Of a stretch of DNA of 64,000 bases, positions 1,480 through 39,395 are shown piece after piece (the first letter of the stretch is position 1; each line of letters begins with the position of its first letter). The notes below the pieces were generated by a model that was given only the letters and a program-made list of their open reading frames with translations, searched no databases and was not told the origin of the DNA. Both the position numbers and the translations under genes were made by a program. The stretch lies in contig JBQLZK010000025.1 of assembly GCA_052168235.1 (NCBI GenBank), positions 1-64,000 of the forward strand, read 5' to 3'. This DNA is from Thainema sp. GTDB lineage: Bacteria; Cyanobacteriota; Cyanobacteriia; Phormidesmidales; Phormidesmidaceae.

Positions 1480-4400
1480 TTAGCGGCGGTTAGGGAAGCT
1501 TTGAATGGACTGTTGGAGGAGGGTGGTGGCCTGTTCGGCAGGGACGGGTGGGGAAAATAGATAGCCTTGACCCAGTTCGCAACCGAGGGTTTGCAGCCAC
1601 TGTAGTTGTTCGATGGTTTCAATGCCTTCTGCGATCGCACTTAGCTCCAGTAAATTGCTGAGTGCCACGATCGATTCCGCGATGACCTGATGACGAGCAT
1701 CCGGTTCGACGGGATTGACAAATGTGCGGTCAATTTTGAGATAGTCCACTGGCAGTCGATACAGGTAGCTGAGGGAAGAGTAGCCTGTCCCAAAGTCGTC
1801 GATACTGAGCCGAATCCCTTTCGCCTTGATTTTGTCGAGTAGAGCCAGTGTCGCATCAACATTTTTCACCAGCATACTTTCCGTAATTTCGAGAACTAGA
1901 GTATTCGGATTGGCTAGTTCACTGGCTTGCAGGGCATCGTCTAAATGCTGGAGCAGTAAATCCTGAAGCTGCCGAACGGAAAGATTAACGCTGATGCGCA
2001 AGGCGCGTTCTGGAAACTGGGCCTGCCACTGGGTTAGCTGTCGGCAGGTCGTCTGCAAAATCCATTCGCCAATGGGAATAATCAGTCCGGTTTCTTCAGC
2101 CAGTTGAATAAAATCGGCGGGTGACACCCAGCCTCGTTGGGGATGCTGCCAGCGAAGCAGTGCCTCAAAGCCTTGAATGGTTTGAGTTTTCAGTTCGATA
2201 ATCGGCTGATAGTAAAGGATAAATTCTTGTCTGTCGAGGGCTTTGCGCAGGTCACTTTCTAGATGTAGCCGCTGCATCGCTTGAAAGTGCATGGCTGGGT
2301 CGTAGATGGCATACTGGCTTTTGCCACTGTGTTTGGCCCGATACATTGCCAAATCAGCATCGCGAATCAGGTCTTCCGCTTGGTGGTGGCTGCTGGTGTT
2401 TATCGCAATGCCGATACTGGTGCTGACGAACACATCTCGACCAGAAATTGACAAGGGAGATTTGAGGTCAACCAAAATCCGCTCCGCGATCATCACGGCT
2501 TCCGTAATGCCGCTGATTTCTTCCAGCAGAATGACAAACTCATCACCCCCCAATCGCGCTGCTAGATCGGTTTCGCGAATAAATCGCCTGAGCAGCGTGG
2601 CAATCGTGAGCAGCAGTTCATCGCCAACCAGATGCCCCAAGCTGTCGTTAACGACCTTGAAGTTATCCAGATCTAAAAAGAGAACGGCAAACTGAGAATC
2701 AGCATGGCGCTTCGAGCGCTTTAAGGCTAGATCCAGCCGCTGCATTAACAGGCTGCGATTGGGCAAACCCGTAAGCCGATCGTGGAAGGCGTTGTGTTTG
2801 AGCTGCTGCTCGACCCGAATCCGGGCGCTGACATCCCGTGATGTTGTTTGCAAATGTCGAATGTGTCCGGCTTCATCCCAAATGGGCTGAGTCAGCGTTT
2901 CAACCCAGATGTAGTGGCTGAGTTTGTGGCGAATGCGATAGGTAATCGGTTCAGGACTGTCGGGCAGGGCAAACTGATCGGCTGACTGGCGAATGCGATC
3001 GCAATCATCGGGGTGAAAGAGTTCGTACGGATCGCGTCCAATCAGTTCAGCTGGACTGTATCCCAGGAGAGCCTGGCTGGAAGGCGTAACGTACAGATAG
3101 CGACCGTCGGGACGATGCAAACAGACCAAGTCGCTCATGTTTTCTGTCACCATGCGCAGACGTTCTTCGCTTTGGCGCAGGGCTGCTTCGGTTTGTTTTA
3201 GATCGGTAATGTCGCGACCGACTGACTGAATTTCAATCAGTTGACCCGCCGCATCAAAGATGCCTTCATTGAGCCACTGTGTCCAGCCGTCCTGCCCATC
3301 GGCTCGCGTATCGCGGTTTTCCACAAAGCAGCGGGGATTATCTGGGGTGAGTTCTGCCAATCTGCGGAAGGCGTCCTGCTCTAAATCATCGGGATTGGCA
3401 AAATCAACCCATTTCTTACCGACAATTTGAGAGAGCGTTATGCCCAGCGCCCGACATAGCGATGGATTGGCAAACGTAATCGTGGTGTCCGGCTGCGATC
3501 GCAGAATGAAATCCGTTTGCGCTTCGACCACTTTGCGGTAGCGCACTTCACTCGCTTGCAGTTCCGCCTCCGTGCGTTTGCGATCGCTGACATCCATAAT
3601 CAGCGTATCCCACACTACGTCACCATTAGCGCGACGTTCAGGCCGACCTGCTGCCTCTAGCCATTTTGTTTTACCCGAGGGCGTGCTGATCCGCCACTGC
3701 CAGAACCAGGGCTGAAGCGTTCGCGCTGATGCGAGGACGGACTCATACATGGGTGCTTGGTCATCCGGATGGACGACCCGCCAGAGAATACTGGCATCTT
3801 GCTCCACGGCTGCAGCTTCGACTTCCCAGAGGTCATAGCAGCCTGGGCTCATGTAAATCACTTTGTCAGAGCCGTCTGGATGCAGCAGATACCTAAAAAT
3901 TGCTCCCGGCACATTGGCCGCCATATTGCGAAACCGCTGCTCGCTTTCGCGCAGGGCTGCTTCTGCTTGCTTCCGCTGGTTGACTTCCTGTCTGAGCAGG
4001 CGATTCCAAAGTGCGATCGCAACTAAACCAACTAGCGGCGCATAGATTGCTAGGTCAATTAAAACCGCTTTGATCTGCGGCCAGCCCAACCGTTGTTCCG
4101 GCTCTAGCCAGCGCTCCAATGCCTGATAATACGCTGAATCTGGGCTAGCCTTCAGCATCCTGATCTGCTCATCCAAAACGGCCAGCAGATCGGACTTGCT
4201 GCCATCCGGAACAATAAAATGCAGCCGAGATGGCCCCAGCAAAATATTGGTTTTTGCCATGTCATGCTGGGCAGCCGCCGTCAATCCCAAGACATTGTTG
4301 ACTGCCACTGCATCAACCTGTCCCTGATCCAGCAGTTGAAACATCTGGTCAAAGCTTGTGGCTTCCTCAAACTCGGGCTTGATGCCAAAAGCGTGGGTCT

Positions 4401-4848
4401 GTTCAACCAGAATATCTTGCTGAATGCTGTCGCGCAGGACAGCCACACGCCTGTGGTCTAGATCCAGAACCGATTCCAGCTCGAGGCCTGAGCGGGCGTA
4501 CACCTCTGACCAACTGGCTAGGACGACTTCTTGATTAAAATCAAATCTGCGATCGCGCTCCTCTGAATAGGCCACATCCATCATCAAATCGAGCTGGCCT
4601 TGCTCTAGGGCTTGTAAGCAGGCATCCCACTCGCAAGGGACATACTCCAACGACCAGTTTTCTGCACCTGCAATACTGTCCAGCACATCAACCCAAAATC
4701 CCGCCGGATCGCCAGCGGGATTGATAAACACTTTCGGTTGATTCTGATAAACACCCACCCGGAGCGGTTCAGCAGCAGACTGCGCTGGGTCAGCATAAAT
4801 TCCTAGCGCGATCGCAATAGTTAAGAGAACTGCCAGGTCCTGCTGCAT
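1480..4848 (-). CDS. Periplasmic solute-binding sensor + 3 PAS/PAC + GGDEF + EAL (diguanylate cyclase/phosphodiesterase)
   Basis: Signal peptide, SBP family-3-like domain, one TM, PAS/PAC repeats, RLGGDEF, FEALLRW and DDFGTGYSS motifs all intact. Confidence 0.93.
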   Translation of the reverse strand: MQQDLAVLLTIAIALGIYADPAQSAAEPLRVGVYQNQPKVFINPAGDPAGFWVDVLDSIAGAENWSLEYVPCEWDACLQALEQGQLDLMMDVAYSEERDRRFDFNQEVVLASWSEVYARSGLELESVLDLDHRRVAVLRDSIQQDILVEQTHAFGIKPEFEEATSFDQMFQLLDQGQVDAVAVNNVLGLTAAAQHDMAKTNILLGPSRLHFIVPDGSKSDLLAVLDEQIRMLKASPDSAYYQALERWLEPEQRLGWPQIKAVLIDLAIYAPLVGLVAIALWNRLLRQEVNQRKQAEAALRESEQRFRNMAANVPGAIFRYLLHPDGSDKVIYMSPGCYDLWEVEAAAVEQDASILWRVVHPDDQAPMYESVLASARTLQPWFWQWRISTPSGKTKWLEAAGRPERRANGDVVWDTLIMDVSDRKRTEAELQASEVRYRKVVEAQTDFILRSQPDTTITFANPSLCRALGITLSQIVGKKWVDFANPDDLEQDAFRRLAELTPDNPRCFVENRDTRADGQDGWTQWLNEGIFDAAGQLIEIQSVGRDITDLKQTEAALRQSEERLRMVTENMSDLVCLHRPDGRYLYVTPSSQALLGYSPAELIGRDPYELFHPDDCDRIRQSADQFALPDSPEPITYRIRHKLSHYIWVETLTQPIWDEAGHIRHLQTTSRDVSARIRVEQQLKHNAFHDRLTGLPNRSLLMQRLDLALKRSKRHADSQFAVLFLDLDNFKVVNDSLGHLVGDELLLTIATLLRRFIRETDLAARLGGDEFVILLEEISGITEAVMIAERILVDLKSPLSISGRDVFVSTSIGIAINTSSHHQAEDLIRDADLAMYRAKHSGKSQYAIYDPAMHFQAMQRLHLESDLRKALDRQEFILYYQPIIELKTQTIQGFEALLRWQHPQRGWVSPADFIQLAEETGLIIPIGEWILQTTCRQLTQWQAQFPERALRISVNLSVRQLQDLLLQHLDDALQASELANPNTLVLEITESMLVKNVDATLALLDKIKAKGIRLSIDDFGTGYSSLSYLYRLPVDYLKIDRTFVNPVEPDARHQVIAESIVALSNLLELSAIAEGIETIEQLQWLQTLGCELGQGYLFSPPVPAEQATTLLQQSIQSFPNRR

Positions 4849-5067
4849 GATGGGTTATATCATCTAGATTTAGGGGTCACATGGCAATTGGGCAATGAAT
4901 CCCAGCACGATCAGACTCAACCAATTAGCATCTTAGCCTACTGTAATATTTCCCCAAAGAAAGATGAAAACTAATTGCGATTCATAAAGCTTCTCAAACA
5001 ATAGAAAATACTCGAATGAGAGAATAAAATATTTTAGCCGAATTTTATTTTCGCCTACATATGAGCA

Positions 5068-5580
5068 TTATGATTCTGCTTCAGGTGCTGAGGATTGCTT
5101 GAAGACTCGATCGATCCAGTGCTTGAGAACCAAGCTGAAGATCAAAACGTTCAGGCTGAAGAAAATCACTTTGCTCCAGGTCGCGTGGTGGACAATTTCG
5201 TATACCTCAACCGGAATCAAAAAGCCGACCAGAAACACAAACAGCGGATCGGCCCAGCGGCGCTGAAACCACAATCCTCCGGCTGCGATCGCAAGTAAGG
5301 TGCCATAACCACCGGAGATCTGGGCAATTAACTTCAGTCCTGGAGCCTGTAAGTTCAGCAAAAACCGCAAGACATCGCGTACTAAGTCGTACTCTGTGGC
5401 GAGGATGTATTCTTCGGCCCACTGGGCAATCTCTGCATAATGTTGCCAGCCGAATCCAGCTAAGAGGGAAACGATCAGCATGAAAACGGCGAAGGTTGCT
5501 TTATTGAGAATAATCAGCTTTAGCCAGATGGAATGGGGTTCCGATGGACGCATTGGGCAGAGAATGATGGATAGATTCAA
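5068..5580 (-). CDS. DUF2127-like membrane protein
   Basis: Hydrophobic helices; GLW..RRWA and IPVEVYE motifs. Confidence 0.7.
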   Translation of the reverse strand: MNLSIILCPMRPSEPHSIWLKLIILNKATFAVFMLIVSLLAGFGWQHYAEIAQWAEEYILATEYDLVRDVLRFLLNLQAPGLKLIAQISGGYGTLLAIAAGGLWFQRRWADPLFVFLVGFLIPVEVYEIVHHATWSKVIFFSLNVLIFSLVLKHWIDRVFKQSSAPEAES

Positions 5581-6482
5581 ATCCTACTCTAGCGCTAGAT
5601 CTGCGGTTTTGCTGAGGAAACGGCTAAATTTGACCCTAATTCGGGGCCAGGAATGCCATAGCGATCGCGCACCTGCTCCAATGGCAGTTCCATTACTGAC
5701 CAAAAATCCCAGTTGGCTGAGAGATCGACGTTGCACTGCGATCCGCGATACAGGGCTTGTAGGATACGACGCGGCTCAAATCGTCCCCGATCAGCCTCCG
5801 CCACAGGCGTAATCTGGATGCCCCAATGAAACTGCAAAATGGCAAACAGCAAAAAGACGAAGCCATCATTCCGCACGAACCCGGACTGAAATGCGCCCTG
5901 CTGAATTTCGCCTATTGGATCGGTATCGTATCCCGACAGCAAATGGCCAAAATCATGAAATACCAAGCGCTCTGGTATCGCACCTGTCTGCCCTGGAAAC
6001 AAAAACTGCCGACTCGTACAGTGCTGCCAAAACCCATAGCCCAGCGTATGGGTCGGCAAGTGCTGCAACTGCTTAAATCGCCTTGCCAGATCGCGGTTTT
6101 GGCCGCCCTGCTTAAACAGTAACGGTTCCAGAATCAGCCGAATACCCTGCAGTCCCTCGTCCTGCCATGCGGCTTTGAAGAATCGCCCCATAATCCGCCG
6201 CATGATCAGCAGCCGAGCGAGCTGATTGCGACCGTTTAGAATATGGTGCAGTGCGACTAATCCCGGTTCGCGTACTGCAAGAGTTTGAGCCAACGTATTC
6301 AGTACCGTTTCCTGTTGGCACGTAATCGGTACTGTGAGCATGGCAACTGCGATCGCAAGTTGCACCAGCCGTTTACGCTGATGCTGCGAGGTGATCACCG
6401 AAGCAACTTGGTACGGTGCTACATCCCGTAGCTGCTGCGGTTCCAGCGTTCTGTCATGCAGTCGAGCAAGTTCCTGTAAGAA

Positions 6483-10072: not shown

Positions 10073-11139
10073 TTAGATGGTGGCGATGGAGGGTGCGTTT
10101 TTGGCTGGGTGGGTGCTGTTTGCTGGTTCAGTGATCATGGGGGAAAGTTGCGATCGCACAACTTCGATGGCTTCTTCGACCATTGTTTGAACAATTTCGC
10201 CAGCGGGTTTGAGTGAGTGAATATTGCCGCTACTTTCGCCAGCGGTGAGGCACATTTCCTCGAAGTCGCCGGATGTGTCTGGGGTCGGCAGAATAACGGA
10301 AAACTTGGGTAATGGTATAGATTGACCATTGACGATAGTCGAGCCAATAGAAGCCTGCTGATCGGTATTGGCTAAAGCGCTGGGTACCTGATCGCCCCAT
10401 TGATTGACGACTCGATTCCGTAGAACTCGCATCATTTGTCCTGGCCACTCTGGGCCAAACAGCGTGGTGCGCGTGGTGTCACCGACGTTCGCTTTTAACA
10501 CTCTGGCCTTATACTCGTCGTGGGCATTGGCCTCTACGCTGGCCAGAAATCGGGTGCCGCACCAGACGGCTTCGGCTCCCAGCGCCAGTGCCGCCACCAT
10601 ACTTTTACCGTCAATGATTCCTCCCGCTGCGATCACGGGCATAGGCGTCACAATATCGCGAATTGCAGGTAATAGGCTGAATGTACTGGCCTCAGCTCGA
10701 TTGTGGCCGCCACCTTCTTTGCCTTGAACACAATGGCATCGAATCCCATTGTCTTGGCCTGCCTAGCTTCCTGCGTCAAACCTACTTCCATCCAGACTCT
10801 GGTGCCACTAGCTTGCAGTCGAGTGACCCACTCTTGCGGTGGCAGCGACCAGAAGAAAATGGCAACAGGTACCCTTTCAGCCACACAAACTTCAATCTGT
10901 TCTTCAGGCGTGAGATCAGTAACGAAGTCGATGCCAAATGGTTGGCTAGTTAACGAGCGGGTCTGACGGATCATCGCTCGTAATCCTTCTGGTTCAACCA
11001 TTGCTGCACTGAAGGTACCCATGCCGCCTGCATTACTGACGGCTGCAGCTAAAGGAGGATGGGCAACACAGGCCATACCTGCTGAAATGATCGGGGCACT
11101 AAGGCCATAGGTTCGGGTAATTCGGGTGGATAACATCAT
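10073..11139 (-). pseudogene. Nitronate monooxygenase (2-nitropropane dioxygenase) family, split by a 1-nt frameshift near 10728
   Basis: PIISAGM..LAAAVSNAGGMG in the 5' ORF; shifted frame restores QGKEGGGHNR and leads into PVIAAGGI..G..AALALGA...GTRF. Confidence 0.85.
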
Positions 11140-11185
11140 AGGAATCTCTGTGGAGAAGGGGTGTAGAGGGTGGAGAGATTTCTCC

Positions 11186-11689
11186 CTAATACAACCAACT
11201 TTTATACTCTGCTGTTGCCGCTTTCATATCTTCGTAAAGCCACACCATGCGATCGAAGAACCAGATTTTGCCGATGTTAATCAGTAAGGTGCCTGCAAGG
11301 GTGAGGGATAGATTAAATTGCCATAAACCCCAAGCAGCCAGAATTAGACCAATACCCGATAGCCCTGTTAAAAAGTAAGGAAAATATTGATGGTGTTGAG
11401 GGATTGGAATAGCGGCACGATTGATCCAAACCCGTTCTCCCAAAACGCCTTTGGCCATCCAGGTATGAGTTGATTTTGGAACTGGAAAAATACGAGCATT
11501 GAGCCAGTTCCAGAGTAGAGCAGTAGCAATAAGAGGTAGCGACCACCAGCCGAGCCATAAACGGCTCCAAATGGCTAAAAATAGTAAGGGAATAACTGTT
11601 AATCTTGTCCAAAAACACCAGGGATGGGTGTGGCGTTTCCAAGTCTCACCCTCCATTTGAAAGAGGCTGGAGATTGTTTGAGCAAACAT
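11186..11689 (-). CDS. DUF6653-like Trp-rich membrane protein
   Basis: W.RH..PW..WTR, GVLGERVW.N and K.WF.DRMVWLY motifs. Confidence 0.75.
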   Translation of the reverse strand: MFAQTISSLFQMEGETWKRHTHPWCFWTRLTVIPLLFLAIWSRLWLGWWSLPLIATALLWNWLNARIFPVPKSTHTWMAKGVLGERVWINRAAIPIPQHHQYFPYFLTGLSGIGLILAAWGLWQFNLSLTLAGTLLINIGKIWFFDRMVWLYEDMKAATAEYKSWLY

Positions 11690-11741
11690 GATAGTTTTCA
11701 GATTGTTGAATAGGGAAATGGGCAGTAGTTTCTTCTAAGAT

Positions 11742-11924
11742 TTAATCTCCTTTTTGTTGCTTGCTTTGAGTGATATTTTGATTACATTGAGGTGGCGGCA
11801 GCGATCGATATTGACCGTGAAATTGACTGAAGCGCCAAAATACTTTTGTCAGTTGCCAGAGATAAGGTTCAATTTCTTGCCTCTCACAAATCGTTTGCTT
11901 GAGACAAATCTTGTGCCAGGTCAT
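11742..11924 (-). CDS. Small hypothetical protein (FWRFSQFHG motif), module gene B copy 1
   Basis: GAGG RBS; shares LW...FWRFSQFHGxYxSLP with 38688..38858. Confidence 0.7.
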   Translation of the reverse strand: MTWHKICLKQTICERQEIEPYLWQLTKVFWRFSQFHGQYRSLPPPQCNQNITQSKQQKGD

Positions 11925-11947
11925 GACTAATCCTCATACTTGATAGC

Positions 11948-12038
11948 CTCACATCTTGTACCAAAACCCAGCAGGGTTATTTTGCCGCCGCATCGTGGCG
12001 GCAAAATGATTTTGAGTTCTCGACGTGCAAGATATGAG
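11948..12038. mobile_element. MITE-like element, about 90 bp
   Basis: Ends CTCACATCTTGTAC...GTGCAAGATATGAG and an internal TTTTGCCGCC..GGCGGCAAAA hairpin; related copy at 61176-61266. Confidence 0.65.
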
Positions 12039-12046
12039 TAGAGTCA

Positions 12047-12301
12047 TTAGTTGTAGTAGCAGCGTTCAATCCAATCGATTACTTCTTGCTTTGAGAAAAA
12101 GACTTGCTTGGTTTGAGTTCTAGGATTGTAAACGTACCATTGAGATCCATAAGCCGTTTCACGTTGATGAATGATTGGTTCGTTGTGGGGTCGGATTAAA
12201 AATTTGACGACTGCGTCTATAGCGTGCATGAGCCAGCGGTTGATGTGATAGATATAGGCTCGTTTTTGCTTGCGCTTTAAGATGATTATCTTGTTATGCA
12301 T
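12047..12301 (-). CDS. Small hypothetical protein (EP.I...Y[ND]P...F.S..E...W.E..YY), module gene A copy 1
   Basis: Strong AGGAGG RBS; C-terminal similarity to 38321..38632. Confidence 0.75.
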   Translation of the reverse strand: MHNKIIILKRKQKRAYIYHINRWLMHAIDAVVKFLIRPHNEPIIHQRETAYGSQWYVYNPRTQTKQVFFSKQEVIDWIERCYYN

Positions 12302-12525
12302 GGCTACCCTCCTAACGCATAGGGCGTAGTAGTTATATCAAGTCTGTGGATAAGAACCCAATTTATTTTTTGTAAGAGCTTGGTTAGATCGAGCTTTTAC
12401 AAAAAATAAGTCATCGGTTTTTAATCAGACTTCGTATTAATTGGCTTACTTTCAACAGTAAGAGCTAAGCCAAATCCTGTCTCTGGGGTTAATCTATGGA
12501 TTCAGCCTGAACAATCTCTGGAAAC

Positions 12526-15500
12526 CTATGTTGATGCTGAGGGTGCTATAGAATCTGCGATCGCACCTAGTGCTTTTAAGCTTTCAATTTGAAATGATGT
12601 CAGTCCTTGAATACCCGTGATGTTCATACCTTCGTAGGGCCGATCAAGCTTTGCTGTTTTCCAGCAATCGTGCGAAGTTATATCCCAAATCTTGAGGGTC
12701 TCATCTTCACCACTGCTGTAGAGATAGCGACCGCTGCGTGCAAAGGCAAGGGCCAAGATTTGATTTTCGTGTCCCTTTAGCTCAGCGATGCATTCTCCAG
12801 TTGTCGGCACCCACAGGCGGATAATGCTGTCGTGGCAGCCTGTGGCCAAGAGATTGCCTTGAGGATGCCATGCGATCGCGCTTACGACACCAGGATGTTC
12901 CAAGATCCGTACACAATCCACGGCGTTAGCCTGAACTTGCCACAGCTTCAGAGTATTGTCGTAACTACCGCTAGCAAGAAGATTCCCTAAAGGACTCCAA
13001 GCCAGTCGCCAAACCCAATGGTCATGCCCTGGGAGAACATGAGCACAATCCCAAGTCTCTGGCTGCCAGATATAAATGTTGAAGTCGCCAACGGCTGCTG
13101 CTAACCATTGCCCCTTGGGATGCCAGCGCACTGACAGAACCCAGCTGGTGGGTTCTGTCAGAGTTCTTAACGGCTGAGGCTGATCGGGATGCCAGAGGTT
13201 TACAGTACCATCGACGCTACCACTGGCCAGCAGGTCTTGGCTAGGATGCCAATCAACTGACCAGACCCAGTTAGTATGCCCTCGCAAAACGTTAAGACAG
13301 CGCTGGGACGATCGCTGCCATAAGCGTAAGGTGCGATCGTGGGAAGCACTTGCAAATCGCTCTCCATCCGAACTCCAGCTAATATCAGAAATGAGATGGT
13401 TGTGGCCGTTAACGTGAGTAAAGTGAGTTGACAGATGGGGTTGCCAAAACCGCAGGATAGTATCGTCGCAACCTAGTACTAGGGTTTCGTCATCAGGAGC
13501 CAGAGCGATTGCCCGCATGTTCGCTAAGTGCCCACAGCAGCTTCGTAAACAGTGCCCCGACACCGTATCCCATAGCCGTAGTGAACCGTCGTGCCCACCG
13601 CTGGCAATTAGTGCTTGCTCAGGATGCCATCGGGCATACCAGACCCAGTTTTGGTGTCCCTGCAAAACTCGTAGACAATAACCCGTTGTTGCCTCCCAAA
13701 GGCGGATAGTGGAGTCGTTTGAAGCACTGGCAACGACCTGACCATCAGGGCTCCAATCAACACTCCAGATGGTGTTGGTATGGCCTTTGAGCATCTGCAT
13801 TGTATGGTTAAGCGAGTTGTTTTCAAGATGCCACAGCACCAAGGTTCCATTCTCCAATGCGCAGGCCAAGATAGGTTTGGTGGGGCTCCATGCCGCCCAA
13901 CGCACTGGAATATTCTCAAAGTTTTGCACTTGCTGACAGCTTCCGCCGGGAATTTGCCACAGTTTCACAGTTCCATCACTACTGCTGCTGGCTAATGTGC
14001 CCGAAACCGAACGCCAACTCAAACTATTCACAATGTCCGTGTGCCCAGCGATAACATGTACGTCTGTAGAATCAAAGGGCTGCCAAATCCGAATTGTGCC
14101 GTCGATACTACCGATAGCCAGCGTATTTGAATCAATCCAGACAATCGCCCGCCCAATAGTTGGTGCCACTGAGAGTTCTGCCTGCAATTCTCCGGTCAAT
14201 AAATTGCATATCTTCACTGTTTGATCTTCGCTGCAAGTCGCAACGCAATGACCATCGGGATGAGGGCGAATGTCCCAGATATAACTGGTGTGCAGACGAA
14301 TCGTTTTAGCTGGTCGGAACTGCATACTGTCCCAAAGCCTTAAAATACCTACGCTGTCGCCGGTAATCAGGTATGACCCGTCCAGGCTATAGCTGAGGGC
14401 AAAGATACTACCAAAGGTTTGCTTGAAGGCCGTTTGACTAAAGTAGGCTTGAGCAAAATTGACTCGTTGAAATAACCGATGCTGTAAATTCGCCTGGCGG
14501 ATCGTCAGGTGAGAAAAGTCAAAATCGGTCAAGTTAATGTCCAGGGCATTACTCAGATTGATGAGATTTCCTGCTCCGTAGCCGATAGGATTGGTGTGGC
14601 GAACTGTCGTAAGTAGGGTTTGAAGCTGTTGAGTTTGAGCAGCAACAGTGGGAAAGCGATCGCAGATTACCTTGACCACAGGCATCAAAAGCAGCCGCAC
14701 CTGAGATTTGGTAATAAAATCCCGCACCGTATTCTTGATCAGCGCATAACAATGCCATTGGCAAAGTGTTGTACTCACCGCTTCCTGACTCAGCGTTTCC
14801 ACAAGCTGTTCGGTGACGTACTCCATGACGACAGGCTGCTGGGTATAGCGTTGTTGTTGACGCTCAATTAGTCCCCGCCACCGCAGCGATTCCAGCGCCT
14901 CTAGCAACCGTGCCTTAGGTGCTATCGGCAAAATATCCTCCGCCAGCTCGCTGATTTCTGTCCAGTCGCGGTTGATGGCCAGCCAGTTCATGACAGCCTG
15001 TTCCAACTCGGAAAGTCGCTGAAGCTGTTCTGCCAATAGGCGACGAACGCTGTTGAAGATAACCGCATCTTCGGCTAGAAATACGCCAATCTCACCATCA
15101 AACAAATCCTGAATGGTAGTGGCGACAATTTTGAGCGCCAGGGGATTGTAGCTGTAGCGATCGCACAATTCCCGTCGCTGTGCGGCTGTCCCGCTGAGCC
15201 CTTTGGCCTCAATCAGCGCTAATGCTGTCGTAACCGAGCCGCTGAGCTGCAGTGTACGGGTGTAGCCATCCATGCCCTCCAATGCGGCGATTTCAGCAGG
15301 TTTCTCGCGGCTGGTAAATAAAATGCAGCTTTGATGAGCCGTTTCACCAATCAGCCGCAATAGCTCACCGTAATCGTCATAACCATCACGATAATATCCG
15401 GCCTGTTCACCCGCCTGGAGAATCGTTTCAACGTTATCTAATACGATCAGACATCTGCGATCGCGCATCCAGTGCAGCAGTCGCGACAGATCGGCAGTCG

Positions 15501-16200
15501 TTTCTTGCTGATCCGATAGGATGCTAATCAGCTCCGCTAGTACCGTCGAGAGATCTGGCGCATTCCGTAGCGATCGCCAGATGACATGGGTAAACGCACA
15601 AGCTGATGTCGAATCGTCTGCATGGTCTACAAGCTGCTGCACCACTCTGGTTGCCAGCGTACTTTTGCCAATGCCGCCCATGCCCAGAACCGCGATTAGA
15701 CGACAGTTTTCCGCCTCAATCCAGCGGCGTAGAATGGCCTGTTCGTCATCGCGACCGTAGAATTGGCTGACGTCGGGGGCTTCACCCCAGGAGGTTGTGA
15801 GGGAGGGAGAGTGAGGAGCGATGCGTGAGGCGTGAGGCGATAGATCCGTTTCGATACTCGTAGATAAAGATTTGGTACTCGTAGATAAGGTTTTGGTACT
15901 CGTAGATAAGGATGTGGGATCTGGAGGTGTGGGTTCGGGGAGCGCATTGCGGCTGATGGCAGCTTTGAAGTTTTTCTTGTTGACGGGTTCGCCGAGGGCT
16001 TGGCTGAGAGCTTTCCAAAATTTAGGGCCAGCATCGGTTGTCAGATAGTTAACCGAATAGCCCGCTTCATCGGCAATTTGCGGATAGGTTTTGCCCTGCC
16101 ACGCGCCCTCAAAGATCAGCGTCTCAATATCGCTGAGTTGCCGTCCCAACTGAGCCTGCATGGCAGTATTAACGATGATAATCGCCTCATCTTGTTCCAT
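12526..16200 (-). CDS. STAND NTPase: N-terminal wHTH + NB-ARC + WD40 repeats
   Basis: KTYPQIA..AGYS HTH, Walker A GMGGIGKS, Walker B LIVLDNVE, NPLALK, pentapeptide linker, many GH...W repeats, RPYEGMNITG tail. Confidence 0.93.
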   Translation of the reverse strand: MEQDEAIIIVNTAMQAQLGRQLSDIETLIFEGAWQGKTYPQIADEAGYSVNYLTTDAGPKFWKALSQALGEPVNKKNFKAAISRNALPEPTPPDPTSLSTSTKTLSTSTKSLSTSIETDLSPHASRIAPHSPSLTTSWGEAPDVSQFYGRDDEQAILRRWIEAENCRLIAVLGMGGIGKSTLATRVVQQLVDHADDSTSACAFTHVIWRSLRNAPDLSTVLAELISILSDQQETTADLSRLLHWMRDRRCLIVLDNVETILQAGEQAGYYRDGYDDYGELLRLIGETAHQSCILFTSREKPAEIAALEGMDGYTRTLQLSGSVTTALALIEAKGLSGTAAQRRELCDRYSYNPLALKIVATTIQDLFDGEIGVFLAEDAVIFNSVRRLLAEQLQRLSELEQAVMNWLAINRDWTEISELAEDILPIAPKARLLEALESLRWRGLIERQQQRYTQQPVVMEYVTEQLVETLSQEAVSTTLCQWHCYALIKNTVRDFITKSQVRLLLMPVVKVICDRFPTVAAQTQQLQTLLTTVRHTNPIGYGAGNLINLSNALDINLTDFDFSHLTIRQANLQHRLFQRVNFAQAYFSQTAFKQTFGSIFALSYSLDGSYLITGDSVGILRLWDSMQFRPAKTIRLHTSYIWDIRPHPDGHCVATCSEDQTVKICNLLTGELQAELSVAPTIGRAIVWIDSNTLAIGSIDGTIRIWQPFDSTDVHVIAGHTDIVNSLSWRSVSGTLASSSSDGTVKLWQIPGGSCQQVQNFENIPVRWAAWSPTKPILACALENGTLVLWHLENNSLNHTMQMLKGHTNTIWSVDWSPDGQVVASASNDSTIRLWEATTGYCLRVLQGHQNWVWYARWHPEQALIASGGHDGSLRLWDTVSGHCLRSCCGHLANMRAIALAPDDETLVLGCDDTILRFWQPHLSTHFTHVNGHNHLISDISWSSDGERFASASHDRTLRLWQRSSQRCLNVLRGHTNWVWSVDWHPSQDLLASGSVDGTVNLWHPDQPQPLRTLTEPTSWVLSVRWHPKGQWLAAAVGDFNIYIWQPETWDCAHVLPGHDHWVWRLAWSPLGNLLASGSYDNTLKLWQVQANAVDCVRILEHPGVVSAIAWHPQGNLLATGCHDSIIRLWVPTTGECIAELKGHENQILALAFARSGRYLYSSGEDETLKIWDITSHDCWKTAKLDRPYEGMNITGIQGLTSFQIESLKALGAIADSIAPSAST

Positions 16201-16203
16201 CGC

Positions 16204-19200
16204 CTAACTATCCTGATCGATGGCGGATTCGATGGCTCCTAATGCTTTTAATGTAACTTTTTGAGCATCGGTTAACCCTTGAACGCCAGTAATATTCATC
16301 CCTTCGTAGGGGCGATTGGGTTGCAGTGTCTTCAAACAGTCGCCAGTCGTCACGTTCCACAGCTTGATGGTTTTGTCTACGCTGCCGCTGGCCAGAACCG
16401 GGCGTTGCGGACTAAATGAAACAGATGTCACCCAGGCCGTATGTCCTGAAAATGTGCTGATGCAGCTTCCAGACGGAATTTCCCACAGTTTGATCGTTTG
16501 ATCTTGGCTGGCACTGCTCAGTAGCGTTCCGTCGGCATTAAACGATATGAACCAGATGAGACTGGTGTGGCCTGATAGGGTTTGCACCAGTTCCCCGGTT
16601 TGCACATGCCAAAGCTTGATTGCTCCATCAGCACCGCTACTGGCCAGATAGGTGCCATCGGGACTAAAGGCCACGCAGAGCACCCAGTCTTGATGTCCAT
16701 GTAGCGTTCTCACACAGTCGCCTGTGCGGATGTCCCATAGGTGAATGACCTGATCAAACCCGCCGCTGGCCAGCAGAGTACCATCGGGACTGAAGGCGAC
16801 CGACCAAATCCAGTGATGATGACCTTGCCAAGCTTTAACAGGCTGTTGAGTTGCAATATCCCACAAGATCAACCTGCGATCGAGTCCTGCACTGGCCAGC
16901 AGGGTACCATCGGGGTTAAAAGCGATCGAAGAAATGCCTTTAGAATGGCCCTGAAAGGAGTGTAAAAGCCGTCGCGTTGAAACATCCCAAAATTTAATCG
17001 TGCCGTCATCGCTGCCGCTGGCCAGGAGACTGCCATCGGGACTGAACTTCACAGACTGTACCTGGTTGCGGTGATCCTGAAAGGTATGCAGGAGTTCGCC
17101 TGTGTGGGCATCCCATAGACGAACAGCATGGTCAAAGCTGCCGCTGGCGAGCAGAGTATCATCTGGGCTAAAGACGACTGACCATACCCAACCCGTATCG
17201 GCCTGGAACGTCTTCAGGGTTTGCCCCGATTGGATGTCCCAAAATCGCAACAGGTGATCGTCTCCCCCACTGATCAGGACGGCACTATCGGGGGTAAAGG
17301 CGATACACCATACCCAGTTATTATGTCCCCGCAGCGTTTTGAGGATCTGACCCGTCTCAGGCTGCCAAATCTTGATCACATGGTCAAAGCCCGCACTGGC
17401 AAGGCAGCCACCATCTGGGCTGAAAGCTACCGCCCAAACGTGATCGGTGTGTCCTTGTAGGGTATGAACCACCTCTCCAGTCTGAGTATCCCAGAGTTTG
17501 ATCGTGCAGTCAGCGCCACTAGTGGCCAGGAGCTGGCCATCGGGCCTAAACGCCACTGACGAAACCTGATCGGTATGTTCGTGCAGTGTTTGAATACATT
17601 TTCCGGTATCAGCATCCCACAGCTTAACGGTGTGATCGGCGCTGCCGCTGGCGATCACACGACCATCGGGACGAAAGGCGACTGATAAAACCTGATCGGT
17701 GTGCTCGGATAGTGTTTGAAGGGATTGTCCGGTATTGACATTCCACAGCTTAACGGTGTGGTCGGTGCTGCCGCTAGCCAGCCGTTGCCCATCGGGGCTA
17801 AACGCCACGGATGAAACCTGGCCCGTATGTTCCTGTAGCGTGTGGACTGGTTCTCCAGTGTTAGTATCCCAGAGTTTGATGGTGTGATCGGCGCTGCCGC
17901 TGGCCAGCAGTTGGCCATTGGGACTAAACGCTACTGACCAGATCTGGGCCAAGTGGGCTTTTTGAATACTCAGGACTTGGCTGTTGGTTGTACTCCAGAG
18001 GCGCAGAATGCCAGTGGACTCACCGGTGACCCAAACTTGGCCATCGGGGCTACAGGTCACCGCCATCACTGGATTAAAGGTTTGGGTAAAGGCGGGATGG
18101 ATTAGTTTGGCACGGGCAAAGCTGACGCCGTGCAAGCTAGTGTTCTGTAGGTAAGCGTGCTGGATAACAAAACCTGAGAAATCAAACTGCCTCAGATCAA
18201 CGTGCAGATGATTGCAGAGGTTAATGATATTGCCGACGCCATAGCCGGAAAAGGGGAGATGAATATCGTACAGGGTGGCAAGAAGGGTTGAAAAATGCTG
18301 CTCTAAAGAAGTTGACTGCTTGAGCGTGATATTGACCTGTTCGGCAATGGGTTGCAGAATCAAGCGGCTTTGGCTGTCACGGATGTAATCTTTAACGGTG
18401 GTTTTGATCAGGGCATAGCGATCGCAAAATACCAAGTCTCCTGAAATGAACTCGCTGCTCATCCGCTCAACCAGTGCGTCCGTCACATATTCCATCACTA
18501 CGGGCTGCAGCGTGTAGCTACCCGCCCGCTTTTCAATCAGACTGCGCCAGCTGAGCGATTCTAAAGCCTCTAGCAAGTGATTGCGGGAGACGGGCGGAAC
18601 GATATCTTCATGTAAGACCGTGATGCTAGCCCATTCTCGGTTAATCGCCAGCCAGTACATCACCGATTCCTCCAGCTCTGATAAGCGCCCGAACTGCTGA
18701 TCCAGCAGGCGACGAATGCCGTTGAATAAAATCGTTTCTTGTTCAAGAAACGGTTCGATTTCGCCGGAAAATAGGTCTTGAATGGAGCTGGTGACAATTT
18801 TGAGCGCCAGCGGATTGCCACCATAGCGATCGCACAATTGCTGCTGTTGTTCTGGAGTGCCGCCCAGCCCCTTCGCCTGCAGAATAGTCAATCCAACTTC
18901 GCAGGAGCCAGAGAGAGAAAGCGATCGCACACCTAGATTAATGCCTTCCATTGCCGCTAGTTCGGCAGGCTTTTCGCGACTGGTCAGGATTACACAGCTT
19001 TGATGGCCGCTTTCACCAATGACGGTGAAAAACTCACGATAGTCTTCATAGCCCGCCCGATACGATCCCGTATGATCACCCGGCTGCAAAATCGTTTCCC
19101 CGTTATCCAAAACCACCAGACAGCGATGGGTGCGAAACCAGTGCAGCAATGACCGAATATCGGTTTGCACATCCGTTTGATTCGAGACGAACAGGACTAG

Positions 19201-19893
19201 CTCACTCAGCAACGTCTCCAAGGGCGGTGCATTCCGCAGACTGCGCCAGATGATGTGCGTAAAGGAAGACGGCGGCGATTCGGCTATGGTTTGAACCAAT
19301 TTAGCTGCGATCGCACTTTTGCCCACCCCACCCATGCCCAACACTGCAACGAGGCGACAGCGATCGACCTCAATCCACTGGTGTAGCATATTTAACTCAG
19401 TGGTTCGACCATTGAACTGGCTGGCGTCGGGCATTTCGCCCCATTCGGTTGCTAGCGAGGGGGAAGCGAGTGACGGAGAAAGCTGGACAGTCTGATCGAG
19501 AGCGATTTTACTGGTTAGGCTTGGTGGCGGATGAGCCAATTGCTCAGTTGCCAGCGGTTCTAGCCGTTCTGATTGCGGAGGCGGAATCGGGGCGGGTGAT
19601 GGAATAGAGAGTGAATCGACTGCAATTTGGGTTCGCCTAACCGCAGATTTGAAGTTTTTTTTATTAACGGGTTCTCCCAAAGCTTGGCTAAGAATTTTCC
19701 AAAACTTAGGCCCAATATCGGTTGTCAAATAATTAACCGAATAGCCAGCCTCATGGGCAATTTGCGGATAGGTTTTGCCCTGCCATGCCCCTTCAAAAAT
19801 TAGCACCTCAACATCGCTCAACTGCCGTCCCCATTGGGACTGCATTGCAGCATTGACGGTTGACAGAGCATCCTCCAGAGTCATGGTGTGCAA
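16204..19893 (-). CDS. STAND NTPase: N-terminal wHTH + NB-ARC + WD40 repeats
   Basis: Same architecture; GMGGVGKS, LVVLDNGE, GNPLALK, canonical SVAFSPDG..LASGS.D.T.KLW blades. Confidence 0.94.
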   Translation of the reverse strand: MHTMTLEDALSTVNAAMQSQWGRQLSDVEVLIFEGAWQGKTYPQIAHEAGYSVNYLTTDIGPKFWKILSQALGEPVNKKNFKSAVRRTQIAVDSLSIPSPAPIPPPQSERLEPLATEQLAHPPPSLTSKIALDQTVQLSPSLASPSLATEWGEMPDASQFNGRTTELNMLHQWIEVDRCRLVAVLGMGGVGKSAIAAKLVQTIAESPPSSFTHIIWRSLRNAPPLETLLSELVLFVSNQTDVQTDIRSLLHWFRTHRCLVVLDNGETILQPGDHTGSYRAGYEDYREFFTVIGESGHQSCVILTSREKPAELAAMEGINLGVRSLSLSGSCEVGLTILQAKGLGGTPEQQQQLCDRYGGNPLALKIVTSSIQDLFSGEIEPFLEQETILFNGIRRLLDQQFGRLSELEESVMYWLAINREWASITVLHEDIVPPVSRNHLLEALESLSWRSLIEKRAGSYTLQPVVMEYVTDALVERMSSEFISGDLVFCDRYALIKTTVKDYIRDSQSRLILQPIAEQVNITLKQSTSLEQHFSTLLATLYDIHLPFSGYGVGNIINLCNHLHVDLRQFDFSGFVIQHAYLQNTSLHGVSFARAKLIHPAFTQTFNPVMAVTCSPDGQVWVTGESTGILRLWSTTNSQVLSIQKAHLAQIWSVAFSPNGQLLASGSADHTIKLWDTNTGEPVHTLQEHTGQVSSVAFSPDGQRLASGSTDHTVKLWNVNTGQSLQTLSEHTDQVLSVAFRPDGRVIASGSADHTVKLWDADTGKCIQTLHEHTDQVSSVAFRPDGQLLATSGADCTIKLWDTQTGEVVHTLQGHTDHVWAVAFSPDGGCLASAGFDHVIKIWQPETGQILKTLRGHNNWVWCIAFTPDSAVLISGGDDHLLRFWDIQSGQTLKTFQADTGWVWSVVFSPDDTLLASGSFDHAVRLWDAHTGELLHTFQDHRNQVQSVKFSPDGSLLASGSDDGTIKFWDVSTRRLLHSFQGHSKGISSIAFNPDGTLLASAGLDRRLILWDIATQQPVKAWQGHHHWIWSVAFSPDGTLLASGGFDQVIHLWDIRTGDCVRTLHGHQDWVLCVAFSPDGTYLASSGADGAIKLWHVQTGELVQTLSGHTSLIWFISFNADGTLLSSASQDQTIKLWEIPSGSCISTFSGHTAWVTSVSFSPQRPVLASGSVDKTIKLWNVTTGDCLKTLQPNRPYEGMNITGVQGLTDAQKVTLKALGAIESAIDQDS

Positions 19894-28126: not shown

Positions 28127-28218
28127 ATAGCCATAATCGCTACGCCAGCTAAACTCTCGGTTTACAAGGCCATCAAGTGATTTTGCCGCCGTGCGGCGGC
28201 GGTTTAGCGTAGCTATAT

Positions 28219-36678: not shown

Positions 36679-38151
36679 CTACCTAACACTTTGCAGCAAA
36701 TGAGCTGCCATTTGGCGTTTGACTAAATGGCCCAGCGTTTGCATTGCCTGTTCAATTTCCTCTGACCAGGTCACTGCGGTATTCAAGCGGAAACAGTTGC
36801 GATAGCACTGCCCAGAAGCCGAAAACATTGGCCCAGGGGCGATGCTGATTCCCTGCTGCAGCGCGCATTCATAAAGCTTGAGAGCGTCAAATTCCTCCGG
36901 CAGTTCTAACCACAGCACATGTCCACCTTGGGGTTGAGAAATACAGGTTTCAGCCGGAAAGTAGTCACTAATAGCCTGCAGCATCCGGTGCATTTGATCT
37001 TGATACACCCGACGGAGCTGACGCAGATGGCGATCATAACCGCCATTCGCGAGAAATGCCGCCACCGTGAGCTGAGGTGCGATCGCAGTTGTTTGATTGG
37101 TGACAGATTTCATTTGGCTGACCCGCAGGTGGTAACGCCCTCCGGCACACCAGCCCACCCGCAAACCGGGCGATAGGGTTTTGCTGACTGAGGAACAGTA
37201 CAGCACCCGATCTTCGGTATCAAACGCCTTAATCGCCTTGGGGCGAGGGCTTTCGAAGCAGAGATCACCATATACATCATCTTCAATCAGCGGCGTCTGA
37301 TAGCGATTGAGCAGCTCAACTAACTGTTTCTTTTTCAGGTCGTCCATGCAGCTACCCAACGGATTGCTGAAGTTGGAAACCAGAAAACAGGCTTGCACCT
37401 GCTTATTTTTCAACGCGTTTTCAAGATGCAGCAGACTAATTCCCTGCCGAGGATGAGTTGGCAACGGCAGTGCCTTGAGTCGCAGCGCTTTCATTGTTTC
37501 TAACGCTGAGAAATAAGTTGGCGATTCAATGGCGACAGTATCGCCTGGCTGCGTAACAGCTTGCAGAGACAGATAAACCGCCTCCAGTGCGCCGTTGGTA
37601 ATCACTATTTGATCTGGATGAATAGAGCAGCCCGTGTCTAACATGCGCTTGCTAAGCTCTGCTCGTAGCGACTGGCAGCCCAGCGGAATGTTGTAGGAGT
37701 GAGCCACGATCGGATGTTCGCGCAGCACTTTTCCCATCAGCCGGTTCAATTGTGCGATCGGGAATCGTTCCGTCACTGGCAGCGCGGCTCCTAGCTGAAT
37801 GATTCCCGGTTCGAGAGTTTCGCTGAGTAGTTTATAGGCCAGAGAGGTATCAATTTCACAAATTTGGGTGGGGGGCTCAGTCCGTGAGGGTTCCAAATGA
37901 CGCTGAAGCGCTGTTTGCTTCACGTAGTAACCCGATTGGGGCCGCGCCATAATCAGCCCTCGATCTTCCAGCAGCCGATAAGCTTCTAGGACGGTAGATA
38001 GGCTCACGGAAAACTGCTGTTTCAGCTTACGGACGGACGGTAGACGTTCACCGGGTTTCAGTGTGCCATTGGCAATGAATTCCTGGAGCCGATTGGCAAT
38101 CTGCTCGTACAAAACGGTGTCGGTTGTTGGATCCAGTGGAGTGAGGTGCAT
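36679..38151 (-). CDS. MocR-subfamily GntR regulator (wHTH + PLP aminotransferase-like domain)
   Basis: LYEQIA..I..G.LKPGERLPSVR..S.STV..AY..LE..G..ARPQSGYYV; IEDDVY and SKTLSPGLRVGW; likely start 38151. Confidence 0.93.
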   Translation of the reverse strand: MHLTPLDPTTDTVLYEQIANRLQEFIANGTLKPGERLPSVRKLKQQFSVSLSTVLEAYRLLEDRGLIMARPQSGYYVKQTALQRHLEPSRTEPPTQICEIDTSLAYKLLSETLEPGIIQLGAALPVTERFPIAQLNRLMGKVLREHPIVAHSYNIPLGCQSLRAELSKRMLDTGCSIHPDQIVITNGALEAVYLSLQAVTQPGDTVAIESPTYFSALETMKALRLKALPLPTHPRQGISLLHLENALKNKQVQACFLVSNFSNPLGSCMDDLKKKQLVELLNRYQTPLIEDDVYGDLCFESPRPKAIKAFDTEDRVLYCSSVSKTLSPGLRVGWCAGGRYHLRVSQMKSVTNQTTAIAPQLTVAAFLANGGYDRHLRQLRRVYQDQMHRMLQAISDYFPAETCISQPQGGHVLWLELPEEFDALKLYECALQQGISIAPGPMFSASGQCYRNCFRLNTAVTWSEEIEQAMQTLGHLVKRQMAAHLLQSVR

Positions 38152-38182
38152 GGTTCGGTCGATACAGTTTTGGGATATTGCG

Positions 38183-38217
38183 ACCATAACAGTTGCTCAA
38201 AACTGAACTGTTATGGT
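38183..38217. promoter_or_regulatory. Candidate operator of the MocR regulator in the divergent promoter region
   Basis: Perfect inverted repeat ACCATAACAGTT-N11-AACTGTTATGGT plus half-site GATACAGTT at 38161. Confidence 0.7.
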
Positions 38218-38320
38218 GACAATTTAACATGATTGCCTCTGTTCGGTCGCTAGTAAATTGACGAAAATTAAACCATGACAGCTCAACCGCTTCAATTCTG
38301 TGAGTTCGGAGGACAATTTT

Positions 38321-38632
38321 ATGAAGCCGCTGAATGACTGTAATCAACTCAACAGCTATATCGTTTCTACATCCCATCTCGCATCCGGCGCGACCTCAGA
38401 GAACGCTGCTAGAAACCAACAAGCTGCTCATTGGTTGACAGCAGTTCTTAAACAAGTTAAAGCCGCAATTTCCAAGCTATTTGATCAGTCCCAAGAGCCT
38501 CGGATTACTAAACGAGTTGATCGCTGGGGCAATCTTTATTTTTCAGTCTATGACCCTATTGATCGGTCGTTTCGTGTTTTCACATCTGAGCAGGAAATTC
38601 GAATTTGGCTGGAGCAACGCTATTACCAGTAG
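38321..38632 (+). CDS. Small hypothetical protein (YDP...FTSEQEIRIWLEQRYY), module gene A copy 2
   Basis: GGAGG RBS before ATG 38321; similar to 12047..12301. Confidence 0.8.
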   Translation: MKPLNDCNQLNSYIVSTSHLASGATSENAARNQQAAHWLTAVLKQVKAAISKLFDQSQEPRITKRVDRWGNLYFSVYDPIDRSFRVFTSEQEIRIWLEQRYYQ

Positions 38633-38687
38633 CGCTTAAGCACTTAATTTGAGTACCACAATCAGGATCAACTATAAGGAGATGATG

Positions 38688-38858
38688 ATGATTCGAGTAT
38701 CTAATCGAGTTGCCAATGTGACTCAAACATCAGCAGCCACAGGTCTGAATCTATGGAAAACTGTAATTCAATTCTGGCGGTTCAGTCAGTTCCACGGACG
38801 CTATCAGTCGTTGCCGCTTGACCAGCGTCAGCAACTAATTCGTGAGCCTAAAAACTAA
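38688..38858 (+). CDS. Small hypothetical protein (FWRFSQFHG motif), module gene B copy 2
   Basis: AAGGAG RBS; similar to 11742..11924. Confidence 0.72.
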   Translation: MIRVSNRVANVTQTSAATGLNLWKTVIQFWRFSQFHGRYQSLPLDQRQQLIREPKN

Positions 38859-38921
38859 ATGCGATTCACTAAGCTCCATCCTTGCATGGGGAGATTTTGA
38901 TATTACTTCAGAATCTCCCTT

Positions 38922-39395
38922 TTACTGAATACGCTTTCGTAGTTTGTTGACATAGACTGATGGGCCAATAATTGTGGCAGAATGTTGCTCAAGCTGAATA
39001 GATAATCTACCAGCTAGTAGTCCCGCTTGAAATGAAGGTTTATACGTCCAAAAATCTTCAAACTGATGTTCTGGATGATAGTCTAATTCTGCTAGCTTAA
39101 TATTCATCCGTGCAACAAACGTCTTTCGATTTTGAATTACAACAGAAACAGTTTTGACTTTTAGCAAGAATGCTGTTGTGAAACCAAAAGACACTCCAAA
39201 CGCAATGCCAATCCAGATGCCAAAAGGTAACGCAAAACCAAAGCTGACGCCCATCACTAATGAAAATAGCGATGACAGCAGTAGCGTAAAGAGTAAGGAT
39301 AAGGCTGCTGACGTGGTCGTTAATGTGCCCCAGAAACCTCTAGGTTCCATGCTGTTTTTCCTAAGTAAGCTATAAGTCGCTGAGTTGACTGACAC
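38922..39395 (-). CDS. Hypothetical membrane protein
   Basis: Two Gly/Phe-rich TM helices and a soluble C-terminus. Confidence 0.6.
   Translation of the reverse strand: MSVNSATYSLLRKNSMEPRGFWGTLTTTSAALSLLFTLLLSSLFSLVMGVSFGFALPFGIWIGIAFGVSFGFTTAFLLKVKTVSVVIQNRKTFVARMNIKLAELDYHPEHQFEDFWTYKPSFQAGLLAGRLSIQLEQHSATIIGPSVYVNKLRKRIQ

Follow-up and report, generated by a model that had tools for sequence, protein, structure and literature searches.

We examined a stretch of 64,000 nucleotides (nt) from Thainema sp. (positions 1 to 64,000 of contig JBQLZK010000025.1, assembly GCA_052168235.1), referred to below as the window, in which a pair of small genes occurs twice; the genes are here termed A and B in copy 1 and A′ and B′ in copy 2. 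We read the two copies as old paralogues of one small two-gene unit, and gene A belongs to a large, unnamed and almost exclusively cyanobacterial family of proteins of ~95 amino acids (aa). Across the loci that we surveyed, it is the combination of a regulator with A that recurs, and not that of A with B. Facing a divergent regulator of the MocR type or, less often, of the LysR type, A typically leads the transcription unit and is frequently its sole member. Our full reading is that this MocR/LysR-linked family is controlled through an ACAGTT operator, that copy 2 represents such a module, that B is a lineage-specific addition and that copy 1 is a diverged relative; taken as a whole, this reading has in our judgement about an even chance of being correct. 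An initial annotation of copy 1, made from the sequence alone, had missed both the MocR divergent module at copy 2 and the atypical character of copy 1 as a paralogue.

Both copies hold the pair in identical order, A then B, at the positions where the initial annotation had placed them (Table 1), with a spacer of 122 nt between A and B in copy 1 and a gap of 55 nt between A′ and B′ in copy 2. A Shine–Dalgarno-like site, as read from the sequence, lies 6–7 nt ahead of all four starts, which bears out the ribosome-binding sites initially reported for both copies. Longer alternatives exist for A′ (GTG at 38300, giving 110 aa) and for B′ (TTG at 38649, giving 69 aa). The two A proteins share 31 % identity over 61 aa (BLASTP, E value 1e-8) and the two B proteins 56 % over 34 aa (E 1e-11). 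Nei–Gojobori estimates of the proportions of synonymous (pS) and non-synonymous (pN) differences were 0.88 versus 0.48 across 61 codons of A and 0.83 versus 0.31 across the 34 codons of the B core, such that synonymous sites are saturated between the copies and the protein sequence is retained. Within the 15 codons of the FWRFSQFHG.Y.SLP core of B, differences between the copies number 1, 2 and 7 at codon positions 1, 2 and 3, and the B frame scores 100 as against ≤69 for the other five frames. No alignment was found between the copies in the DNA beyond the open reading frames (ORFs), nor was a third copy of A or B found in the window. Because pN lies far below a saturated pS and conservation is frame-specific, A and B both look like old protein genes under selection, and the similarity of the copies points to selection at the protein level and not to recent duplication. 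This agrees with the initial annotation, which had argued for selection over recent duplication and had made its case depend in part on purifying selection on B.

The A family is sizeable. Searched against a library of 1.84 billion proteins, a profile built from six sequences matched 1225 representatives (proteins clustered at 50 % identity) with E≤1e-3, of which 245 reached E≤1e-10. Most of the matches are 90–105 aa long and are aligned over their C-terminal ~60 positions, with the consensus EPxI..DRxGNxY.xVYDPxT....F.SE.EVR.WLEQRYY. Their sources label them ‘hypothetical protein’, apart from one IMG entry with an automatic ‘AlpA’ label, and the atlas neighbours of A′ are cyanobacterial clusters that likewise go unnamed as ‘hypothetical protein’. 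A word-index protein search retrieved only A itself when started from A, and four relatives when started from A′. Searches with A, A′, B and B′ gave nothing above cut-off in Pfam-A 2025, NCBIfam 20.0, PHROGs v4 or PADLOC 2.0, and a comparison of 148 A members with Pfam yielded scattered sub-threshold matches and none above the gathering score. The initial impression of an unrecognized family was therefore sound, in that neither A nor B is covered by a named family. Both A and A′ match region 21–64 (of 133 positions) of the phage family phrog_6475, with E values of 0.019 and 0.0026; these matches are weak, and the phage family is without an assigned function. A literature search with the A-family and B-core motif strings found no paper, and the titles and abstract openings of the literature on MocR in cyanobacteria mention no such small protein. 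Several genomes give two loci, as A paralogues occur several to a genome, each beside its own regulator. In a tree of 91 A domains (63 columns, with many unresolved forks), A′ groups with P0006–P0008, which is the sole grouping that we draw from it; the A protein of copy 1 forms a long branch, with a best identity of 40 % to the A protein of a B-bearing locus in Limnoraphis robusta (L066).

The association of A with regulators was examined in a sample of loci collected with two peptide patterns, derived from an A′-like alignment (10-sequence subset), in one genome per species. Confirmation was obtained for 97 of 151 candidate stretches and 80 loci were kept, giving 87 A ORFs when the window is included; 77 of the 80 loci carry recognizably cyanobacterial names and the remaining three are named ‘uncultured bacterium’. 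A divergent MocR-like gene (tblastn with the N-terminal part, ≤900 nt upstream, opposite strand) accompanies 48 of the 87 A genes, and a LysR-type gene occupies the corresponding divergent position at nine (tblastn). Cruder gene calls on the same 87 genes gave MocR for 40, LysR for 9 and neither for 38. The identities of the neighbours were confirmed by Pfam, with the MocR-type proteins combining a GntR helix-turn-helix (HTH) with an aminotransferase fold. A third regulator context is formed by three MerR loci (L022, L027 and L033), in which a MerR gene, a SnoaL-like gene and two tandem A genes are followed by an HlyD/AcrB RND efflux pump. The initial annotation had pictured the pair as repeatedly placed under different ligand-sensing regulators and had proposed that both motifs be surveyed together with neighbouring regulators; this survey upholds the picture for A (48 of 87 genes for the MocR type and nine for the LysR type, besides the MerR loci) but not for the pair, with B-like ORFs behind only 3/87 A genes. 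What follows A is variable. Among the 48 MocR-linked A genes, the next gene is convergent in 11, leaving A alone, and a same-strand gene of >80 aa lies within 250 nt in 26, encoding SnoaL-like (6), DinB (5), PhzF-like (5), GNAT (3), EamA (1) or other (6) proteins; the rest have behind them an ORF of ≤80 aa (eight cases) or a gene farther away (three).

MocR regulators bind direct and inverted repeats ahead of divergent targets, and copy 2 in our window is a canonical divergent module of this kind, made up of a MocR gene, a putative operator, A′, B′ and a terminator-like hairpin. It has the regulator domains, the divergent target and the conserved, repeated direct and inverted boxes in a common intergenic region that mark MocR regulons. 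The MocR-type gene, whose true start may be an internal ATG at 38151 (Met13), encodes a protein with Pfam matches to GntR (1.3e-19) and Aminotran_1_2 (6.9e-33). Its best NCBIfam model is PdxR (287 bits, cut-off 320), and the PdxR, YczR, EhuR and MocR models span 190–287 bits, all below their equivalog cut-offs. The same protein shares a BLAST cluster (C0) with the divergent regulators of 40–48 other A genes. Between the regulator and A′, ACAGTT boxes at 38164–38169 and 38189–38194 and an inverted AACTGT at 38206–38211 sit in an inverted repeat with 18-nt arms (38177–38194 and 38206–38223) that are 11 nt apart; downstream of the boxes are a ACAATTTA element at 38219–38226 and ATTGCCTCTGTTCGG at 38232–38246. 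ACAGTT/AACTGT is present in 31 of 34 MocR–A intergenic regions, whereas in shuffles no 6-mer exceeded a count of 18, and the common architecture is tACAGTT-N19-aACAGTT-N11-AACTGTa, then cATAACAATTTA and TGCCTCTGTTC. The strict form ACAGT[TC]-N9-13-A[AC][CT]TGT was found in 23 of the 34 regions, with an 11-nt spacer in 19, and occurs once in the window against an expectation of 0.05. No hairpin was found in the A′–B′ gap, and the terminator-like hairpin behind B′ would close a bicistronic A′–B′ transcript. A different motif, TTTTATTCATAGA..GCAATGA, lies ~150–200 nt before the start of LysR-linked and many unclassified A genes (for example L042, L048, L062, L064, L068 and L070) and is likely to be a LysR-type box of a second regulatory class.

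The nearest parallels to copy 2 are MocR-type regulators such as PdxR and GabR and the ‘unknown metabolism’ regulogs of Suvorova & Rodionov 2016 (PMC5320631), who treated two cyanobacterial MocR regulators and found PhzF-like, DMT and RimI/RimL (GNAT) genes to be frequent in MocR regulons elsewhere. PhzF-like, DMT/EamA and GNAT cargo is thus common to the A loci and to those regulons, but in our loci the first and constant target is neither enzyme nor transporter, being an unnamed protein of ~95 aa, and in the 11 of 48 MocR-linked cases described above it is the sole target. Sll1961 was also considered as a relevant regulator and set aside, being of the PlmA type and not of the MocR type (PMC5923263).

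Further evidence comes from plasmids, where tblastn detected A relatives on 10 records. One of these is pSYSM of Synechocystis sp. PCC 6803 (L082), in which a 98-aa A-family ORF at ~87235–87531 has a MocR-type gene (85552–86997, annotated as a pyridoxal phosphate (PLP)-dependent aminotransferase family protein) on one side and, on the other, a DUF2267 gene and then an SDR gene; the ORF is preceded by the complete ACAGTT operator pattern. From the gene order, we take sll5086 to be the MocR-type gene and slr5087 and slr5088 to be the DUF2267 and SDR genes. The PLSDB gene table, which is incomplete, shows no gene at this ORF in three records of PCC 6803 or in strain B12, and lists a ‘hypothetical protein’ at the corresponding ORF of strain IPPAS B-1465. 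In the supplement to PMC5320631, the cyanobacterial regulog ‘sll5086’ comprises COG5502 in Synechocystis and a ‘hypothetical protein’ in S. elongatus PCC 7942; the Synechocystis target listed there is COG5502 and not the small ORF lying in between. A preprint (10.1101/2020.12.15.422378) places the Slr5087–Slr5088 transcription unit among those most strongly induced upon transfer to a surface, and states that neither a phototaxis nor a flocculation phenotype was seen on deletion of slr5087-5088. On a plasmid of Synechococcus sp. NIES-970, a GntR-family gene is divergent from a 98-aa hypothetical protein, and such a regulator was not found beside the A relative in two other plasmid matches. Given the PCC 6803 member and the reported surface induction of the slr5087-88 unit, the function of the family is directly testable in a tractable organism.

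Gene B is much more restricted than A. It encodes a protein of 56–60 aa, predicted to be helical, with an invariant FWRFS...G core, and a model of B′ based on five sequences consists of one long and one short helix, with a predicted local distance difference test (pLDDT) score of 79. The word-index search with B′ retrieved two relatives, P0003 and P0004, both from metagenomic assemblies, and the atlas returned nothing for B′ (score 0.83). A hidden Markov model (HMM) of B, run over the six frames of the 80 loci, gave one further candidate (E 5.8e-4), the L. robusta locus L066, where a 57-aa ORF with FWRFS and G kept, and with GGAG before its ATG, lies 144 nt behind a MocR-linked A gene. B-like ORFs thus stand behind the A genes of the two window copies and of L066, and the other small ORFs behind the 87 A genes are unrelated to B. 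A scan of species-representative genomes with the B alignment gave 59 pattern matches, of which none was confirmed, so that relatives there are absent or undetectable. In L066, a perfect 16-bp hairpin and its U-rich tail lie between A and the B-like ORF (4232–4375, z score −3.7), and this hairpin and that in the A–B spacer of copy 1 may attenuate B or mark separate transcription. An IS605 OrfB/TnpB-type gene is situated directly downstream in L066, at 4768–6027. On the basis of these comparisons, B appears to be a lineage-specific passenger or partner of A and a rare companion of it.

Copy 1 departs from the MocR arrangement in several respects. Two tandem NACHT/NB-ARC-WD40 (STAND) genes precede it on the same strand, the second of them 224 nt away; the first ~120 residues of their products had no Pfam or NCBIfam match. 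With no MocR neighbour upstream and no ACAGTT operator pattern, it lacks the hallmarks of a MocR regulon. Its A protein is altered in the alignments at four of 13 (near-)invariant family positions (D78N, E90K, R94I and R100C) and scores 74 bits on the family HMM versus 118 for A′. The inverted repeat upstream of it has the geometry of the copy-2 operator core and an unrelated sequence; this repeat could be a terminator of the STAND gene or an operator for another factor. The A–B spacer folds at −42.8 kcal/mol (z score −4.5), and a search of positions 11000–13000 with Rfam gave nothing above thresholds, with sub-threshold microRNA-like hairpin matches only. A repeated mobile element was considered as a possible source of the spacer hairpin; just one further match at ≤3 mismatches is present in the window, a degenerate second copy with three mismatches at 28182–28206. 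The initial annotation had given weight to the position of copy 1 behind tandem STAND genes. Of the 85 A genes outside the window, not one has a STAND/WD40 gene immediately upstream, and in two cases such a gene lies three genes downstream; the adjacency is therefore local history and not a rule, and copy 1 is a diverged paralogue that lost the MocR operator.

As to what A does, AlphaFold2, run on an alignment of 148 sequences, models A′ with a disordered N-terminus, a helix at 30–54 and a domain at 59–103, the latter with a pLDDT of ~95 and comprising strands 61–66, 72–78 and 83–87 and a helix at 90–102. The helix ahead of the C-terminal domain is long and amphipathic in the A family. The constancy of A beside several regulator types, and its frequent position as sole target, favour a protein-binding output role, and we tentatively regard A, with low confidence, as a small protein-binding output of regulator sensors. 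In the mechanism that we propose, the MocR protein would bind the ACAGTT boxes between its own gene and A, would respond to a small amine or PLP-linked ligand and would switch on A plus the genes behind it, often DinB, SnoaL, PhzF, GNAT or EamA genes and in copy 2 only B′. A would act as the constant output of the sensors and would most likely bind a macromolecule via its strand–helix domain, with a protein partner favoured as target and DNA less likely.

A more far-reaching and rather improbable version of this mechanism would make the A family a set of cyanobacterial small signalling adaptors, a common output of MocR, LysR and MerR regulators. Each paralogous sensor would switch on an A protein of its own, which would relay the signal by binding a cellular target common to them or the regulator itself, much as PipX does in nitrogen control, with B as a helical modulator in one lineage. 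PipX, a small co-regulator of cyanobacteria, has PII, NtcA and the GntR-type regulator PlmA as binding partners. Its likeness to A is one of logic only: both are restricted to cyanobacteria, measure ~90 aa, have a β-sheet followed by a helix and are tied to transcription factors. PipX was absent from the PDB profile matches, of which there were none, and from the Foldseek matches listed, which gives no ground for placing A in the PipX family, and it is a single-copy core gene whereas A has several paralogues per genome.

The competing view of A is that it is a small DNA-binding co-regulator of the lambda integrase arm/MBD/AP2 fold class, acting with or against the neighbouring regulator. The lambda Int arm-binding, MBD and AP2/ERF domains form one fold class in SCOP, and the high-confidence A′ model, with its predicted three-stranded antiparallel sheet and C-terminal helix, fits that topology. 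Among PDB entries, plant MBD domains match it best (E 0.38, probability 0.57, template modelling score 0.42 on target), five of 148 A members weakly match Pfam Arm-DNA-bind_1 in the strand region (best E 0.002, 18.6 bits against a cut-off of 22), and a GxYYxYxDPxTGK-like stretch of A aligns locally with residues 21–39 of lambda Int. These similarities are below significance, however. Homology to the lambda Int N-domain (residues 1–75) was dropped after hhalign returned a probability of 2.9 %; Foldseek searches with the A′ model found nothing at E≤0.001 in PDB or BFVD; a sequence-profile search of PDB chains with the A family gave 0 matches at E≤1; and the C-terminal domain is not basic, its approximately neutral charge (mean +0.26) not favouring DNA binding. 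We consider a DNA-binding role unlikely. For B, the analogous doubt is whether it is a protein gene at all or whether what is conserved behind A is instead an RNA or DNA element acting in cis. It is very short, occurs in few genomes, is not recognized by the atlas and is closely preceded by strong hairpins in copy 1 and L066, all of which would suit such an element; yet seven of the ten differences in its core fall at third codon positions, the B frame far outscores the other frames, pN is well below pS, each copy has a Shine–Dalgarno site at the correct spacing and Rfam recognized nothing above its thresholds in the region around copy 1. This makes a non-coding B very unlikely.

Copy 1 raises two further alternatives. 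One is that it is a decaying, non-functional duplicate of a MocR–A–B unit, stranded behind the STAND genes, and that only copy 2 is active. The altered family positions, the lower HMM score and long branch of its A protein, and the absence of both a MocR gene and the ACAGTT operator are as expected of decay, and a promoter scan of 11100–12700 was without a sigma-70-like site. Both ORFs are nevertheless intact and have good Shine–Dalgarno sites, where a dead copy would be expected to have gained stop codons because synonymous sites are saturated; moreover, pN is still well below pS, the B core is fully retained and the upstream inverted repeat with 18-nt arms could be a control site of its own. 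Decay of copy 1 is on this balance a minority possibility, and we continue to read it as a diverged paralogue. The other alternative takes A and B to be a pair of the toxin–antitoxin or defence type that works for the neighbouring STAND NTPases, as suggested by two small adjacent genes directly downstream of two NACHT/NB-ARC-WD40 genes and by the common occurrence of STAND proteins in conflict systems. PADLOC gave nothing at E≤0.01 for A, B and the flanking small genes, and a Pfam toxin or antitoxin family was not found; with B accompanying A in 3/87 cases and no toxin–antitoxin family match, the pair does not have the make-up of a type II toxin–antitoxin system. The missing STAND genes upstream of the other A genes and beside copy 2, and the usual position of A alone or ahead of metabolic genes, likewise tell against this proposal, to which we give hardly any credence.

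Several points weigh against our own reading of a MocR/LysR-linked A family with B as an occasional companion. The loci were picked by their likeness to the MocR-linked A′, such that 48/87 may overstate the link across the family, and neither regulator was near 30 of the 87 A genes, of which three had <1 kb of upstream flank. The ACAGTT operator is putative, being deduced from a motif. As B is behind only 3/87 A genes, A functions in the absence of B in almost every lineage, and the strong hairpin between A and B in copy 1 and L066 makes co-transcription uncertain there. The B relatives P0003 and P0004 may adjoin the A′ relatives P0006 and P0007, as suggested by the equal sizes of their longest source contigs (3063 and 4854 nt). 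The Foldseek result and the neutral charge of the domain count here also, and neither A nor B has a biochemical activity assigned by homology or experiment.

Beyond the pairs themselves, the genes that follow B and B′ encode unrelated membrane proteins, and no cargo is common to the two copies. Copy-1 B is followed by a co-oriented DUF6653 membrane protein gene (11186–11689, minus strand), and B′ by a convergent gene for an unassigned 157-aa membrane protein (38922–39395, minus strand). Further along, at 10073–11139 (minus strand), a nitronate monooxygenase gene is split into two overlapping parts, an N-terminal part at 10648–11139 (163 aa) and a C-terminal part at 10073–10651 (192 aa), which represents a frameshift, a pseudogene or a sequencing error.

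Table 1. Features of the two A–B copies and their surroundings (window coordinates)
Feature	Position	Strand	Details
Gene A, copy 1	12047..12301	-	84 aa; AGGAGG 6 nt 5′ of ATG; divergent family member
Gene B, copy 1	11742..11924	-	60 aa; GAGGA 6 nt 5′ of ATG
Gene A′, copy 2	38321..38632	+	103 aa; GGAGGA 7 nt 5′ of ATG
Gene B′, copy 2	38688..38858	+	56 aa when started at the last of three ATGs; AAGGAG at 38676-38681
MocR-type regulator gene	36679..38187	-	Divergent from A′; GntR winged HTH and class I/II aminotransferase fold
Putative operator/promoter region	38164..38246		Conserved across MocR–A loci
Terminator-like hairpin with T-rich tail	38874..38891	+	After B′; from a consensus scan only
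Tandem STAND genes	12526-16200 and 16204-19893	-	NACHT/NB-ARC and WD40; ~1225 aa each
AT-rich inverted repeat	12363..12409		Arms of 18 nt separated by 11 nt; ~85 nt 5′ of copy-1 A
GC-rich 11-bp hairpin	11979..12007		Within the copy-1 A–B spacer; 100 % complementary inverted repeat

MocR regulators are widespread, and most of their regulons fall under ‘unknown metabolism’; in the cyanobacterial loci analysed here, their constant partner is an unnamed small protein. If the adaptor version of our mechanism were true, cyanobacterial MocR regulators would mainly drive a layer of protein–protein signalling and not a metabolic operon. Gene B is a minor, lineage-specific curiosity unless it is shown to bind A. 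This work is of value chiefly because it defines a large family of small cyanobacterial proteins that has a conserved regulator, a conserved candidate operator and a member in a model organism.

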